Shown: positions 3,934 to 60,602, counted from the first letter of the stretch. The stretch is 64,000 nucleotides of DNA from GCA_000165345.1 CM000431.1:256001-320000; one strand, 5' to 3'. Numbers and translations: made by a program. The notes: generated by a model from the letters alone, not told the origin.

Positions 3934-4685
3934 ATGGAGAACACTCAGGTAAATAGCGATTTATCGAGTAAGTTTGTAGTAAATTTCTCTCAAATTATGG
4001 AAAAGTTGCCTCGGAATTGGCTTATTGGAGGAGGATTGATAGAGAGAATATTGATATTTAAACCGAAAAATACTAATATATATTACCCTTATTATTAATT
4101 GATTGTTTAGATATTGAGAATTTTATAAGGCTTTCGTACAAACAACAATTGGAGCTTGTTACTGAACAAGAGAAGCAAAAGTTAAACTTATATGCTGATT
4201 ATATTTTGAATTGTATTCCTTTAAACATTAGAAAGTTGAAGATTAGAGAAATACTTGAAGACCAAGGCAAAAATTTAATATTATCAGGTAAGTCTATCTG
4301 TTTAACTCTCTAATAGATTTGTTATATTAACTTTAATAATCCTTCAGAGGATGAGAAAACTGAAATTTTAAAAAAGTTAAATGAAATTGTTAGTATGAAG
4401 TCATTCAAACCAGAATCAATGCCAGTGAACTCATCTTCGGAATCAAAGAATGTAGGACTATACAAGGACCATCTTAAAAAGTCTAGAGTGAAGCTCTTGC
4501 CAATTTCAAATACATGCTATACGATTATTAGAGAAAAGACTGAAGATTTTTTTCCAGGTGAATGTGATGAAAACGCTGATAATCACAACAGTAACGGACA
4601 AATCCAAGATAATATGAACAAAAATACCTTAGAAAATCAAATGTTAGATTCTAACATGATTAGAGATGTGATAAGTTCACTATAA
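3934..4685 (+). CDS. Hypothetical protein of about 182 aa encoded in three exons: join(3934..3967,4111..4287,4348..4685)
   Basis: ATG at 3934. Donor GTAAGT at 3968 and acceptor TTTAG at 4110. Second donor GTAAGT at 4288 and acceptor CTTCAG at 4347. Exon phases are consistent (1 nt + 2 nt at intron 1, 1 nt + 2 nt at intron 2). The third exon ends at the stop of track ORF 4395..4685. The spliced product reads MENTQVNSDLS-N-IENFIRLSYKQQLELVTEQEKQKLNLYADYILNCIPLNIRKLKIREILEDQGKNLILS-EDEKTEILKKLNEIVSMKSFKPES... Without splicing, the first exon frame stops at 4098. Confidence 0.5.
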
Positions 4686-20610: not shown

Positions 20611-21325
20611 CTAGTTACTTGTTGAGAATTCCATGACAAGTTTCTCATATTCGGTTAATGGAGCAGCTTTAGAGACATTTTCCTGGTGAAGCTTACATTC
20701 TTCAGGAGTCATCTTCAGAATTGTTTGAATACCAATTTTCTCAACGCTTTTTGCTGTAAATTTGTTGTTATTGAGAAGCAAGGCTTTCATTAAGGATTGA
20801 AAGTAGTTTTTCTCAAGTTCTCTTTTGTAGTCTTGCCGATTAATAAGATTGAGCGCAGCTAAATCTTGTTTATATAGTTTATCAGCCTAAGTATGACATT
20901 ATTAGGAGTATGTAATTGAAATAAGGAAATTAGTAGGAAGAATCGATCAAAATGGATTAAATGAATATAGATGAGTATTTGATAGTAAACAATAGTAAAT
21001 GAATGAATACTTTTAAGCTTACCTTAATTAATAATGCTTTATGTAGAGATAATGCTCTATTGTCAATGGAAGACCAGGAGTCTTGAATTACTTTTGTTTT
21101 AGTAATTTCTAAGTCTTCTCCTTCATCTGACCTAGACAACATTAATAAATGCTCGACATAATCAAGGAAACCCCAATCCATGGTGTGGCTAATTACATCA
21201 CTTTCTTCATCACTGGACTCTTCAGGAGGAGGTGTTGATCCTGTCTCACTTAAAGTTTTCTCTGTATTCTCGGAAGCACTTGCATTTGCTACTTCTCCGA
21301 CATATTTATTGATAAAGTCAAACAT
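20611..21325 (-). CDS. Hypothetical acidic protein of about 192 aa encoded in two exons: join(20611..20886,21023..21325)
   Basis: Exon 1 ends ...LSLHKALLIK in phase 0 at 21023. The donor GTAAGC is at 21022 and the acceptor CTTAG at 20887. Exon 2 reads ADKLYKQDLAALNLINRQDYKRELEKNYFQSLMKALLLNNNKFTAKSVEKIGIQTILKMTPEECKLHQENVSKAAPLTEYEKLVMEFSTSN*. The frame was checked triplet by triplet from 20614 to 20886 with no stop. The unspliced ORF stops 21 codons into the intron. Confidence 0.5.
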
Positions 21326-21499: not shown

Positions 21500-21545
21500 T
21501 ATGCATACACAACAGTTGGCGCCGGAACACTCAGGCGGGAACTGT
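21500..21545. promoter_or_regulatory. Divergent-promoter motif block TTGGCGCCGG (GGCGCC 21518-21523) plus GGCGGGAAC (21534-21542), between gene starts 21325 (-) and 21973 (+, ARF1)
   Basis: Seen directly. It resembles a palindromic E2F site adjacent to the reverse complement of a TTCCCGCC-type half site. Confidence 0.4.
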
Positions 21546-21954: not shown

Positions 21955-22524
<570 letters not shown>

Positions 22525-22954
22525 TCTCTTAGATAATTCTACTTTTAAGTATAATGCCTAATTTAAGGCCTAGGAATCTAAAATTGAGTGTATTGAGAGC
22601 TATTTTCTCTCAATATGTACTACCAAAAGTAGTGAAATCTCTAATAAAGAATAGATTAAAATGTTTCCAATAAGTTACTTTTATTCACATGCTTTTATTT
22701 ACTCTTAAGTTTTCATCAAATATTCATATTAAACATATTTTTTTGGTCACCAGTTTCCCGCCTTAAAGTAGTTGTAGAAATAGGGGGAAAAATTACTGGT
22801 ATAATTATTCGAGCCAAAGAATAATGAACTATTAGAATTGACAATATTTTATTTATTTAAAATCTAATCTTACAATTTTATTAAATAACGCATTTTGCGG
22901 GTAATTGAATTTCTTTTAATGATATAACTACAAAATGTGAGCCTCCATATGTAA

Positions 22955-23026
22955 TCCCACGTAGTCTAGGGGCTAGGATACTCGGCTTTCACCCGGGCGA
23001 CCCGGGTTCGATTCCCGGCGTGGGAG
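22955..23026 (+). tRNA. tRNA-Glu (anticodon UUC), 72 nt
   Basis: TCCCACG/CGTGGGA forms the acceptor stem. TAGTCTAGGGGCTAGGATA is the D arm. CTCGG-CTTTCAC-CCGGG forms the anticodon stem-loop with TTC at positions 34-36. GGGTTCGATTCCCGG is the T arm. The ORF track entry 22973..23212 (-) is the reverse complement of this RNA gene. Confidence 0.8.
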
Positions 23027-23165
23027 TGTTTTATCCGTGAAGGAGGATTGCACCGCTGCCTGACTCCGATCGCACTGTTTAGCCCGCAGTGCGAGCTGTA
23101 GGAGTTCGGGCCTCGGTTTGGTCTGGGGAGAGGAGGTTCCACCGCGGATAGTTTTTTTAATGTAT
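23027..23165 (+). ncRNA. GC-rich (about 60% G+C) structured element of about 135 nt directly 3' of tRNA-Glu, ending in a T7 run: candidate Pol III-transcribed small RNA or processed tRNA trailer
   Basis: A perfect 8-bp hairpin TCGCACTG-tttagccc-CAGTGCGA is present. The GC-rich blocks (ccaccgcgg, gggcctcgg, ggggagaggagg) stand out sharply against a background of about 25% G+C. The element terminates at TTTTTTT (23152-23158). No conserved snRNA or snoRNA boxes were recognised by eye. Confidence 0.3.
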
Positions 23166-23293
23166 TTTTTGTGTCTTGAACTTTTATAGTTTAGATGAGT
23201 GTTTTCTAGCAATTTTTTATTTATATGAGAGAATAGTTGTTTTTTTGTTAAAACATAATAAGTGTTAATTAGTATGCTGATAGGAAAGATAGA

Positions 23294-24141
23294 ATGAAAA
23301 AAAGAAACGTCTTAATTGGAGTAACGGGGAGCGTTGCAGCAATAAAAATTCATGAATTTATAAAGAAATTAAAAGAAAAAGTTATAAGTAACAATATTGA
23401 AATAGAGATCAAAGTTGTTGCAACTGACTCAGCAAAAAACTTCCTCAATGGTTTAGCTTTAGATTTATTAGTAGATTGTCAAGATGAATTTGGTAATTGG
23501 AAGAGTATGGGGGACGATATTCCTCATATAAGCCTCAGGCAATGGGCTGATTTATATATTATTCTTCCTTTGTCGGCAAATACGTTGGCAAAACTATCTA
23601 ATGGGCTTTGTGACAATGTTTTGGTAAGTTAGCAAAAGTTGTGATTTATGGAGAGGTTGATAAGGTATGAAAATACAAGTTAATGAATACAACGAGTTAT
23701 ATTGTTTTGATATGGAAAATTCTATAAATTTACGAATATGAATAACTTTAACATTTCATAACAATATAAAGTTGTAATGGCAACACCTAAATATGCTAGA
23801 ATATTGCTATTTCGAAGCTTTTTAAACAAACATGTTTAAAGAGTGCATATAGTTCTTCTCCAATTAAAAATCTTGTTCATAACTAATTAACTGACTTAAT
23901 TCAGACTAATATTGCAAGAGCTTGGGATTTCAAGAAACCCATTATAGTTTGTCCCGCAATGAACAGTTTCATGTGGGAGCACCCAATTACTTTAACTCAA
24001 ATTAACATTCTTATCTCTTTTGGTTACAAAGTGGTATTCCCAATTGAAAAAAAGTTGGCATGTGGCGAATATGGGATGGGTGGAATGCAAGAAATTGAAA
24101 AAATTGTTGAACAAATTCTTCTTGAACTAAACTCATCCTAA
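23294..24141 (+). CDS. PPCDC: Phosphopantothenoylcysteine decarboxylase (PPCDC/Hal3-type flavoprotein), 188 aa in two exons: join(23294..23623,23905..24141)
   Basis: Exon 1 reads ...VLIGVTGSVAAIK...HISLRQWADLYIILPLSANTLAKLSNGLCDNVL, followed by the donor GTAAGT at 23624. The acceptor TTCAG is at 23904. Exon 2 reads TNIARAWDFKKPIIVCPAMNSFMWEHPITLTQ...KKLACGEYGMGGMQEIEKIV. The junction reproduces the conserved GICDNLLT..ARAWD block of PPCDC without a gap. Track ORFs 23294..23632 and 23959..24141 are the two exons. Confidence 0.88.
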
Positions 24142-24482: not shown

Positions 24483-24893
24483 TCATCCCATACATCCCAA
24501 AGGACGTGATGGTTGAGTTTCACTCCAATATTTCCCAAAATTTTCTTCTCCTTTTTCAAATTGTAAACCTCTATTTCTACCAGAATTTCTTTGGAATACA
24601 TTCCTTCTTTGATCAATACTAATGTCTAATTGCTGGAAGAAACTTGGAACTCCCAAATTTGACATATAGTGTACTACATATGGTGGAGAAGATACAAATG
24701 GATAACTACAAGTTACTTCTGGATACTTATATCTTGGGGAATATGGATAGTAATCAAATGGGACAGCAGAAACCGGTGGTAATATAACAGAGTCAGGATG
24801 AAATACTTGTTCTTCTTGCATTTCTTCCTCTACTGGATTCATGCATTGTGCCAAAACTGATAAATCTTTTCTTGGCGAATTTATGTTAACCAT
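24483..24893 (-). CDS. Hypothetical Pro/Tyr-rich protein, 136 aa
   Basis: ATG ORF (ATG at 24893..24891). No recognisable domain. Moderate confidence that it is a real gene. Confidence 0.4.
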   Translation of the reverse strand: MVNINSPRKDLSVLAQCMNPVEEEMQEEQVFHPDSVILPPVSAVPFDYYPYSPRYKYPEVTCSYPFVSSPPYVVHYMSNLGVPSFFQQLDISIDQRRNVFQRNSGRNRGLQFEKGEENFGKYWSETQPSRPLGCMG

Positions 24894-59210: not shown

Positions 59211-60602
59211 ATGAAAAGTAATAAGTATCAAGAATTTGAATCTTTACCAAATTCTTTATTGTTTGAGAAGAAAAGTAAAAGTCAAGTATTAAGACAAAAT
59301 GATTTAATAACAAATATTGTACGAGATAATTTAGATAATGGGAACAAATTATTCAACGATGAACATGATGTTAATAATTTTGATGATTTACCTTTTGTAA
59401 TACCTTCAAAGAGAATTATTATTGAATGGCCTTTACATCTTTTGAAGAATTTAAAAGCTTTAGATTTTGAGAATAATGATTTTTCCAAATATGAATTAGA
59501 GAATATCGAGATTTGTAAGATAGTGTCAAACAATGTGAGGGAAAAGGGTGCTCAGGAATGGGAGCAGGCCCAGAAGTGTGAGGAAGAGCCGGTTCAGGAG
59601 CAAAAGAAAGAGCTGATCCAAGAACTTGAGGAAGAGCCGGTTCAGGAGCAAAAGAAAGAGCCGGTTCAGGAATACAATAAAGAACCGATTCAGGAACAAA
59701 AGAAAGAGCTGATCCAAGAACTTGAGGAAGAGCCGATTCAGGAATACAATAAAGAGCCGGTTCAGGAACAAAAGAAAGAGTTGGTCCAAGAACACAATAA
59801 AGAAGAGCTGTTCCAGGAGCATGAGCTAGAACAAACCCAGAACCGGAACCGGAACCAAAACCAAAACCAGAGCCAAAAACAACAACTTACCATCCAAAAA
59901 CAACTTAACATCCAAAAACCCCAACTAAACGTCCAAAAACACCAACTTGAACAAACTAAATTCCCAACAAACTTGAGACTCAAATACATGCAGATCTACA
60001 TTATGGGAGGATATGCAAAAAAACATTTTCATAATAAAGAACAAAATTCATATAATATCAGAGTTGAAATCAAAAAAAATCAGGAAATTCAAGCAATTAA
60101 AGTTATTAATATATTAGAGAAAGATGATATGCACTTTTTTCACCATGGCAATAACATTCTCTCATCATTTCAAAGCAATAATTCTGAGTATCATCGTAAA
60201 TTTATATCATCACAAATTCAAGCAAATAAAAGGATGTTCAGACTCAATTCTCACCAATATAAACTTCAAATCTTTAAATTCTTAAATATCAAAATCCCAA
60301 TTAAATGTGATGATCAAATATATCTTTATCTCGGAAATTCTCAGTCAAAACATGAATTTAATGATGTTCAAAAAGATCACCAAATTCACAGAAGAAATGC
60401 TATATTACCCATTACAAAACAAAATCTTCTTAAATTAACAAAAGATGGGGGATTTCAGACACTTCTGGAACTTCATGATCATTTTTATACTTTTCAAACT
60501 AATATTACCCAACAAAATTCCACTCATTCTTTTTTATCTCAAAATTTCAATCATCCAGATACCTTTATTGGATACATTCTACTATCCATCCAAAAGGCAT
60601 GA
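59211..60602 (+). CDS. Hypothetical repeat-containing protein, 463 aa (EEEPVQEQKKELIQELE-type tandem repeats, NRNRNQNQNQ, IQKQLN repeats)
   Basis: ATG ORF. The central third is built of imperfect tandem repeats. No family was recognised. Confidence 0.55.
   Translation: MKSNKYQEFESLPNSLLFEKKSKSQVLRQNDLITNIVRDNLDNGNKLFNDEHDVNNFDDLPFVIPSKRIIIEWPLHLLKNLKALDFENNDFSKYELENIEICKIVSNNVREKGAQEWEQAQKCEEEPVQEQKKELIQELEEEPVQEQKKEPVQEYNKEPIQEQKKELIQELEEEPIQEYNKEPVQEQKKELVQEHNKEELFQEHELEQTQNRNRNQNQNQSQKQQLTIQKQLNIQKPQLNVQKHQLEQTKFPTNLRLKYMQIYIMGGYAKKHFHNKEQNSYNIRVEIKKNQEIQAIKVINILEKDDMHFFHHGNNILSSFQSNNSEYHRKFISSQIQANKRMFRLNSHQYKLQIFKFLNIKIPIKCDDQIYLYLGNSQSKHEFNDVQKDHQIHRRNAILPITKQNLLKLTKDGGFQTLLELHDHFYTFQTNITQQNSTHSFLSQNFNHPDTFIGYILLSIQKA
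59575..59960 (+). repeat. Intragenic tandem repeat region: about nine imperfect copies of a 24-36-nt unit (GAGCCGGTTCAGGAGCAAAAGAAA...), an (AACCGG)2(AACCAA)2-type hexanucleotide run and three 21-nt CCATCCAAAAACAACTTAA-like units. It is locally GC-rich.
   Basis: Seen directly. The repeats are in frame and encode EPVQEQKK, EPIQEYNK, NRNRNQNQNQ and IQKQLN peptide repeats. Confidence 0.75.

Follow-up and report, generated by a model that had tools for sequence, protein, structure and literature searches.

Pol III dicistrons in which a tRNA is coupled to a second RNA are uncommon. [quoted passage not shown] The tRNA-Trp-RUF70 genes of Yarrowia lipolytica were found by a missing-terminator criterion, co-transcription was demonstrated, and the second RNA, with a mature form of ~70 nt, was confirmed by northern blotting, tRNase Z being expected to cut between the two (Acker et al., 2008, PMC2566860). 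Spacers of only 4–7 nt are found in the tRNA-5S fusions of the same organism (PMC2566860). Transcription of the plant tRNA-Gly-snoR43 gene by Pol III proceeds from the tRNA promoter, and RNase Z cleavage of its product was demonstrated experimentally (Kruszka et al., 2003, as summarized in PMC2566860).

A GC-rich hairpin element lies directly behind the tRNA-Glu gene of Cryptosporidium. Judged by its layout, the closest analogue of this tRNA-Glu-hairpin unit is the tRNA-Trp-RUF70 gene of Yarrowia. As in both kinds of Yarrowia fusion, the leading tRNA carries the promoter, the spacer is a few nucleotides long, and a T tract closes the unit behind the second RNA; as in RUF70, the putative second RNA lacks a conserved internal promoter, places a stem beside the tRNA 3' end, and has undergone compensatory changes. 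The two also differ in important respects. RUF70 is ~70 nt long and occurs in 13 dispersed copies, behind every tRNA-Trp gene, whereas the Cryptosporidium element is found at one locus (181 kb searched), measures 66–170 nt, and is a predicted RNA. It is fixed in position throughout the genus yet changes rapidly in sequence, and it has no sequence relationship to RUF70. The likeness to plant tRNA-snoRNA genes extends to Pol III transcription from the tRNA promoter and to a cut by RNase Z between the cistrons, both of which are predicted here. The second cistron of the plant genes, in contrast, is a C/D box snoRNA with an antisense element to rRNA, and the Cryptosporidium element lacks such boxes.

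The literature searched held no description of an apicomplexan tRNA-ncRNA dicistron. The RUF6 genes of Plasmodium falciparum form a multi-copy family; they carry A and B boxes themselves, lie within clusters of var genes and are not linked to tRNA genes. Like the Cryptosporidium element, a putative Pol III RNA, RUF6 is a GC-rich Pol III small RNA of a very AT-rich apicomplexan genome (PMC5175341, PMC6974570, PMC11208047). Unlike RUF6, the element is tRNA-linked, and it matches no Rfam family at E ≤ 10, RUF6 included if present in the library. The one small RNA sequencing and comparative study of C. parvum, on sporozoites, lists 79 novel intermediate-size ncRNAs, of which 43 are intergenic and almost all occur in a single copy, and its text makes no mention of a tRNA-linked RNA or a Pol III dicistron (Li et al., 2022, PMC9465071). 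One of these 79 RNAs may already be the element, listed without classification. Its dicistronic reading, its constant position throughout the genus and the hypervariability of its sequence appear not to have been described previously.

The tRNA-Glu locus of C. parvum

The window, by which is meant the whole 64-kb stretch of C. parvum chromosome 3 that was analysed, contains a single tRNA gene, one of 45 in C. parvum, identified by ARAGORN and Rfam as tRNA-Glu(UUC). A 136-aa ORF at 24483–24893 matches a hypothetical protein of C. parvum Iowa II / IOWA-ATCC without a difference. Positions 22940–23170 correspond to ~280,406–280,609 of CM109963.1, and the element to ~282,061–282,192 of CP044420.1. 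Its A and B boxes are intact, and the B box has the canonical sequence GGTTCGATTCC. No further tRNA gene occurs in the 10 kb to the left of the window, and the 10 kb to the right are taken up by one giant gene. The features of the locus, in window coordinates, are as follows.

21973–22524: ARF gene, the upstream neighbour of tRNA-Glu
22895–22906, plus strand: upstream motif TTGCGGGTAATT, ~-60 from the tRNA 5' end; possible promoter element
22919–22928, plus strand: TATA-like box ATGATATAAC, ~-36 to -27 from the tRNA 5' end; position conserved in most lineages
22937–22946: short GC-rich block GTGAGCCTCC, between the TATA-like box and the tRNA start
22955–23026, plus strand: tRNA-Glu(UUC), putative first cistron, with internal A and B boxes (ARAGORN; Rfam tRNA, 57.8 bits)
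23027–23032, plus strand: U-rich spacer TGTTTT of 6 nt, read from the sequence and beginning at the expected RNase Z cut site
23033–23149, plus strand: long GC-rich hairpin, putative second cistron (MFE and centroid folds, RNAalifold consensus)
23125–23136, plus strand: purine-rich block GGGGAGAGGAGG, mostly unpaired, on the 3' side near the hairpin base (parvum-clade conservation)
23152–23158, plus strand: T7 run, preceded by AG; the first run of T5 or more after the tRNA and predicted Pol III terminator of the whole unit
23165–23170, plus strand: back-up T6 run downstream of the T7 run
23294–23632 and onward: PPCDC-like flavoprotein gene (Pfam Flavoprotein), just 3' of the terminator

The flavoprotein gene appears in the window as an ORF of 112 aa and in annotated assemblies as a 188-aa product encoded over ~850 nt, which implies an intron. 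On the other side of the ARF gene, a small patch of ~50% G+C contains the E2F-like sites TTGGCGCC and GGCGGGAA (21516–21541); lying between a divergent gene that ends at 21325 and the ARF gene, it is probably their shared Pol II promoter.

An earlier, sequence-only reading of this DNA had noted that G+C content jumps immediately after tRNA-Glu, and the composition of the locus bears this out. G+C content is 59% over the 125 nt that lead from 23027 up to the T run, 24% over the 100 nt upstream and 21% over the 100 nt past the terminator. The element is the most GC-rich island of the window, which averages 30%. Segments of 80 nt that reach 60% G+C account for 0.17% of the 64 kb and are all located at the tRNA-Glu locus, where the peak segment reaches 64%, ~5 SD above the mean. 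The only other region approaching 50% G+C, at 59512–59800, consists of imperfect tandem repeats with EEPVQEQKKE-like units inside a 463-aa ORF (59211–60602).

The perfect 8-bp hairpin described in the same reading is also present, with TCGCACTG at 23070–23077 pairing with CAGTGCGA at 23087–23094 (9 bp if a U-G pair is included), though this apical stem-loop (23070–23094) is only the tip of one long irregular hairpin that spans the whole element. The hairpin is closed by a terminal stem formed by ATCCGTG (23033–23039) and CGCGGAT (23143–23149). The C. parvum element has an MFE of -53 kcal/mol, with z = -2.3 relative to dinucleotide shuffles. When the putative primary transcript is folded as a whole, the centroid structure retains the acceptor and T arms of the tRNA and the hairpin forms a separate domain. 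The element had been described as ending in a T7 run at 23165; the run itself is found at 23152–23158, and the end coordinate overshoots it by 7 nt, reaching the second run, T6.

Conservation of position and RNA fold

Syntenic loci were fetched by using neighbouring proteins, including an identical ARF protein, as handles. They represent 17 Cryptosporidium lineages: C. parvum, C. meleagridis, chipmunk genotype I, C. ubiquitum, C. canis (two assemblies), C. felis, C. bovis, C. ryanae, the gastric species C. muris, C. andersoni and C. serpentis, and lineages designated L006, L008, L009, L010 and L016. The tRNA-Glu gene is identical at 72 of 72 positions in every one of them, and a GC-rich hairpin element occupies the same place behind it in all 17. 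The element has 52–67% G+C in a genome of ~30%, shows compensatory changes among orthologues, and is a real, non-random and evolutionarily maintained feature. A putative RNA is fixed in position, beside an invariant and essential tRNA, across a genus of medically important parasites.

The length of the element, measured to the T run, varies widely among lineages. It is 66–67 nt in C. bovis and C. ryanae, 70 nt in L006, 85–89 nt in L016 and C. canis, 119–129 nt in the parvum, ubiquitum, felis and L009 lineages, and 167–170 nt in the three gastric species, in which it forms two hairpins. Across the genus, the only constants at the level of sequence are a loosely kept terminal stem and the T run. 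Among members of the parvum clade, conservation is highest in the terminal stem and in the unpaired GGGGAGAGGAGG block, the latter being wholly or almost invariant there as well as in C. meleagridis, L006 and L016. The block has been kept in L006 despite the loss of 57 apical nucleotides, after which the remainder of the element refolded; it is not conserved throughout the genus. A covariance model built from the parvum clade and run on the 181 kb of fetched loci recovered its own clade and L006 (E = 7e-10), and detected no distant orthologue and no paralogue. The model is blind to distant orthologues, so homology beyond the clade is a matter of synteny alone. The possibility that the element is a GC island shared by many loci is excluded within this scope, as neither the window nor the 181 kb contains a second copy. 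Metagenome contigs scanned for the 3' half of the tRNA gave no matches.

Four independent tests show that the element is an RNA structure maintained by selection. For the parvum clade, RNAalifold was run on an alignment of six species and predicted 42 base pairs, 13 of which have compensatory double changes. In this consensus, 85% of the cells are paired, compared with 34–48% when the partners are slid by 1–3 columns, and none of 500 shuffles matched the observed pairing, the number of double changes or the covariation score. The three gastric species support a two-hairpin consensus of 46 pairs, 11 of them with double changes. An alignment-free arm-swap permutation involving 10 lineages revealed that cognate 5' and 3' halves outperform all 20,000 permutations (p < 5e-5). 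This half-arm version was decisive; a mix-and-match test of the terminal 22 nt was weak because the sequence of the terminal stem is itself semi-conserved. MFE z-scores were negative in 11 of 11 lineages tested, ranging from -0.5 to -5.1 with a mean of ~-2.4. Finally, the tRNA-sense strand folds more stably than its reverse complement in all 17 lineages, by 12.6 kcal/mol on average, an advantage attributable to the 4–11 G-U pairs that each molecule contains. A strand-specific fold fixes the strand that is transcribed.

Two alternative readings do without a functional RNA. In the first, the feature would act or arise at the level of DNA. It might be a GC island, a promoter or insulator of the flavoprotein gene, or a further TFIIIC site; or it might be a product of mutation, for instance through biased gene conversion at a site of heavy transcription or through template switching within an inverted repeat. 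An apparently high mutation rate, and B-box-like GTTCG strings seen by eye in some lineages, can be cited for this idea. A strand-specific fold with many G-U pairs in 17 of 17 lineages argues against it, since neither a DNA element nor a cruciform is expected to show one, as do the compensatory double changes and the persistence of high G+C through rapid turnover in an AT-rich genome. In addition, the B-box-like strings are missing from at least five lineages, and the gap between the terminator and the flavoprotein gene ranges from ~130 nt in C. parvum to ~690 nt in C. bovis. A DNA-level feature or a mutational by-product is very improbable.

The second of these readings concerns two minus-strand ORFs, at 22966–23142 (58 aa) and 22973–23212 (79 aa), which are present in C. 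parvum and might encode a small protein. Both extend across the tRNA gene in antisense orientation, a collection of 15 billion proteins contains neither exact sequence, and no gene is called there in any fetched locus. The element sequences cannot be aligned between clades and their lengths differ by non-multiples of three, so these ORFs cannot be conserved. A coding role is scarcely credible, and the earlier view of the minus-strand ORF as an artefact was well founded.

The element diverges 1.5–5 times faster than its flanks and than the 4-fold sites of the ARF gene, as seen in three pairs.

C. muris and C. andersoni: element 30%, 300 nt upstream 6%, 130 nt downstream 5%, ARF 4-fold sites 5.6%
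Two C. canis assemblies: element 28%, 300 nt upstream 7%, 130 nt downstream 17%, ARF 4-fold sites 11%
C. parvum and L010: element 11.5%, 430 nt upstream 4.4%, 130 nt downstream 0.8%, ARF 4-fold sites 4.2%

The ARF sample comprises only ~70 synonymous sites, so evolution of the element faster than neutral is suggestive and not proven. High G+C and the hairpin nevertheless persist through this turnover against a background of 30% G+C. The best explanation is selection on the fold and on high G+C, strongest at the base of the hairpin and hardly acting on the remaining sequence. A sequence that changes faster than nearby synonymous sites while its fold and G+C are kept offers a clean, naturally occurring test of how selection acts on RNA shape alone. 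In the two C. canis assemblies (L004, 4032–4125; L007, 4035–4126), the elements are 72% identical, the DNA upstream is 93–94% identical, and a neighbouring protein of 135 aa is identical. With identity as low as 72% within C. canis, the element might be useful as a subtype marker, and a hypervariable hairpin lying between invariant priming sites might likewise distinguish species.

Predicted termination, processing and promoter elements

The position of T runs relative to the tRNA and the hairpin is informative with regard to termination. Pol III stops at T4 in vertebrates and requires T5 or more in yeasts, and the threshold may differ in Cryptosporidium. In all 17 lineages, a run of T5–T8 is found 0–11 nt (usually 0–6 nt) past the hairpin and is the first run of at least T5 after the tRNA. 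The spacer between the tRNA and the hairpin base is only 5–8 nt long. Its orthologous versions read TATTTT, TGTTTC, TATTTC, TATTTA, TAATTA or TGGTCT, and all but the first of these lack T4, which leaves at least seven lineages without a T4 at this place. In 7 of 14 lineages scanned, no T4 or longer run interrupts the stretch from the tRNA to the element's end, and Pol III transcribing this essential tRNA gene would meet its first possible terminator behind the element. Among the loci fetched later, those of C. ryanae and C. serpentis also lack an internal run of T4 or more, and that of C. andersoni has an internal T4 near the 3' end of the element. In C. parvum and six relatives, a T4 does follow the tRNA, within TGTTTT or TATTTT. 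The sequence-only reading placed the Pol III stop at T7 rather than directly behind the tRNA. T7 is the first run of five or more, and the reading had overlooked the T4 in TGTTTT, which in C. parvum may be a weak terminator or the relic of one.

The GC-rich stretch, which folds into a long structure and runs up to the first strong stop signal for Pol III, is most likely part of a two-in-one gene. On balance, we lean toward a dicistronic Pol III gene that would comprise tRNA-Glu and a hairpin RNA, the latter being released by RNase Z as a stable small RNA that acts through its shape. We infer co-transcription by Pol III and release by RNase Z from a layout that follows the arrangement documented for dicistronic Pol III genes. 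In such a gene, TFIIIC would bind the A and B boxes within tRNA-Glu(UUC), possibly aided by the TATA-like box at ~-30 and the TTGCGG motif at ~-60, and Pol III would initiate a few nucleotides 5' of the tRNA. The polymerase would then pass the weak or absent T run after the tRNA, copy the GC-rich segment and terminate at T5–T8. RNase P and RNase Z would excise the tRNA, and the RNase Z cut after G73 would create the 5' end of the hairpin RNA, with a 5'-monophosphate and the sequence UGUUUU... in C. parvum. The released RNA would be ~125 nt long in C. parvum and 66–170 nt elsewhere, and its 3' oligo-U tail would be expected to bind La. The T4 after the tRNA in C. parvum and its close relatives counts against this reading, as it could stop part of the transcription. 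The sequence-only reading had proposed either a dicistronic tRNA-small RNA unit or an unusually long structured 3' trailer, a pair of options that synteny, T-run placement, compensatory changes and the strand-specific fold support, with expression and processing as predictions.

The same T4, together with an upstream arrangement of TTGCGG at -60 and a TATA-like box at -30 that resembles a type-3-like promoter layout, could also be accommodated by two independent transcripts. The tRNA transcript would then end in the short T run behind it, and the hairpin RNA would be transcribed from a start of its own, with the tRNA or the upstream motifs as promoter, or by Pol II. The distances involved speak against this arrangement. 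The tRNA and the hairpin base are separated by just 5–8 nt, no conserved promoter-like motif is present inside or just 5' of the element, and the upstream motifs are positioned by the start of the tRNA and not by the hairpin. At least seven lineages, moreover, have no T4 at which the tRNA transcript could end. Separate transcription is accordingly quite improbable, and the dicistronic gene remains the preferred reading.

The upstream motifs merit attention in their own right. TTGCGG is found at -56 to -64 across the intestinal-clade lineages, embedded in variable sequence, and is absent from C. muris, C. andersoni, C. serpentis and C. ryanae. The composite TTGCGG-N(15–30)-ATATAA occurs once in the window. 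The combination of TTGCGG at ~-60 with a TATA-like box at ~-30 recalls upstream promoters composed of a PSE and a TATA box, an arrangement that would be unusual for a tRNA gene. Some Pol III genes are TATA-dependent, and on this basis the TATA-like box may serve as a site for TFIIIB. In several species, the -60 motif reads GCGGGAAA, which is E2F-like.

A GC-rich block is present in the leader at the same place in every lineage, and its sequence is different each time. Pairing of this block (22937–22946 in C. parvum) with the purine-rich part of the trailer was considered and rejected upon comparison of cognate and non-cognate duplex energies, in which only L009 stands out. In L009, the leader sequence CACCACCCACCC (~3990–4013) is a nearly perfect complement of GGGUGGGGUGGUG, an arm of its own hairpin (element 4087–4216), and the duplex has an energy of -28.9 kcal/mol versus -16 for non-cognate leaders. 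A gene for the RNase P/MRP subunit p29 is located ~10 kb from tRNA-Glu in several of the fetched loci (L011, 13880–14614; L012, 15772–16557; L018, 432–1244), a linkage that is probably coincidental.

Identity and possible role of the putative hairpin RNA

Permissive searches of Rfam 15 (E ≤ 10) with the C. parvum, C. muris and C. felis loci returned only the tRNA and no family for the element, over which scattered matches to different families were at chance level (10–17 bits). None of the Rfam families for Y RNA, vault RNA, 7SK, SRP, RNase P, MRP or the snRNAs matched it. The analogy to tRNA-snoRNA dicistrons drawn in the sequence-only reading is not sustained, given that C/D and H/ACA boxes are lacking and that the Rfam search gave no snoRNA match. 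A C/D box snoRNA was rejected because the C. parvum element has GUGAAGG on its 5' side and neither CUGA nor GA before the 3' strand of the stem, and because the other lineages have neither a C box (RUGAUGA, expected near the 5' end) nor a D box (CUGA, expected near the 3' end). An H/ACA snoRNA, which would carry an ACA or AGA box 3 nt from its 3' end, an H box in the hinge and a pseudouridylation pocket 14–16 nt further upstream, was rejected because the 3' ends read AUAG, AUGA, ACAGCC, AAAC, CCAC, UUCC, GCGGG and CUUCC, with no consistent ANA box; an ANANNA-like hinge occurs only in C. muris. A second tRNA, or a tandem tRNA pair, was rejected because ARAGORN finds one tRNA per locus. With the telomere repeat of Cryptosporidium taken to be TTTAGG, a telomerase RNA of the small Pol III type found in ciliates was likewise rejected, as inspection by eye revealed no permutation of CCUAAA in the C. 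parvum element and none common to the lineages. Inspection of the orthologues by eye also revealed no conserved A or B box inside the element. The C/D, H/ACA, k-turn, B-box and telomerase-template readings were thus all dropped for want of a motif that is consistent across lineages.

The main question of function is whether the hairpin acts in cis, on the transcript that contains it, or in trans. As a structured 3' trailer, it might aid termination or La loading, block 3' exonucleases or time the maturation of tRNA-Glu, and would then be degraded. Such a role would account for a genus-wide conservation that is limited to fold, G+C and adjacency to the T run, for the placement of the hairpin base 0–11 nt (usually 0–6 nt) from that run in every lineage, for lengths of 66–170 nt, for the refolding of L006 after the loss of 57 apical nucleotides, and for very fast sequence turnover. 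The lack of a genus-wide motif, the wide range of lengths and the presence of one or two hairpins, which are unusual for an RNA with a specific partner, also fit a pure cis role. Nevertheless, a T run directly behind the tRNA would suffice for termination without 66–170 nt of costly GC-rich RNA, an unpaired purine-rich block is conserved in the parvum clade, and the second cistron of the analogous RUF70 gene accumulates as a mature RNA. A purely cis-acting trailer is therefore plausible but rather unlikely, and a shape-dependent RNP acting in trans is preferred.

Selection on fold and G+C, with little selection on sequence, leads us to guess that the product is a stable, protein-bound RNA acting by shape; the best guess, by analogy, is that it may do so in the manner of Y or vault RNAs or of Yarrowia RUF70. 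Y and vault RNAs are Pol III transcripts of 70–140 nt with a terminal stem and an oligo-U tail, a conserved stem base, a variable centre and their own promoters. The element similarly has paired ends followed by a T run, a better-kept stem base and a variable centre. Unlike these RNAs, it has no conserved promoter motifs of its own, and it matches neither Y_RNA nor Vault in Rfam. A literature search found no paper linking Ro60, TROVE or the major vault protein to Cryptosporidium. If abundant, the RNA would add an uncharacterised RNP to a very reduced genome.

Viral systems offer a further comparison. The TMERs of murine gammaherpesvirus 68 consist of a tRNA-like promoter, one or two GC-rich hairpins and a T run, and RNase Z cleavage yields a hairpin with a 5'-monophosphate. 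A pre-miRNA of the TMER type is a hairpin of ~60–70 nt from which Dicer generates 22-nt RNAs that are loaded on Argonaute. The element resembles TMERs, adenovirus VA RNA and EBV EBER in its fast evolution, and the gastric species even have a tRNA with two hairpins. In contrast to TMERs, most of the Cryptosporidium hairpins are far longer than a pre-miRNA, and C. parvum, according to the small RNA study, has no RNAi machinery, lacking Dicer and Argonaute as well as canonical miRNAs (PMC9465071). By analogy to these viral RNAs, the hairpin RNA might conceivably be a host-directed or immune-evasive effector, a highly improbable role for which fast evolution and architecture are the only support. 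If it did have this role, the 5'-monophosphate left by RNase Z would replace the 5'-triphosphate that host sensors detect, and the fast substitution and the differences between parasites of different hosts would represent an arms race with host factors.

Apart from its natural function, the tRNA-Glu unit might provide a compact Pol III cassette for the expression of guide RNAs in Cryptosporidium, with built-in processing by RNase Z.
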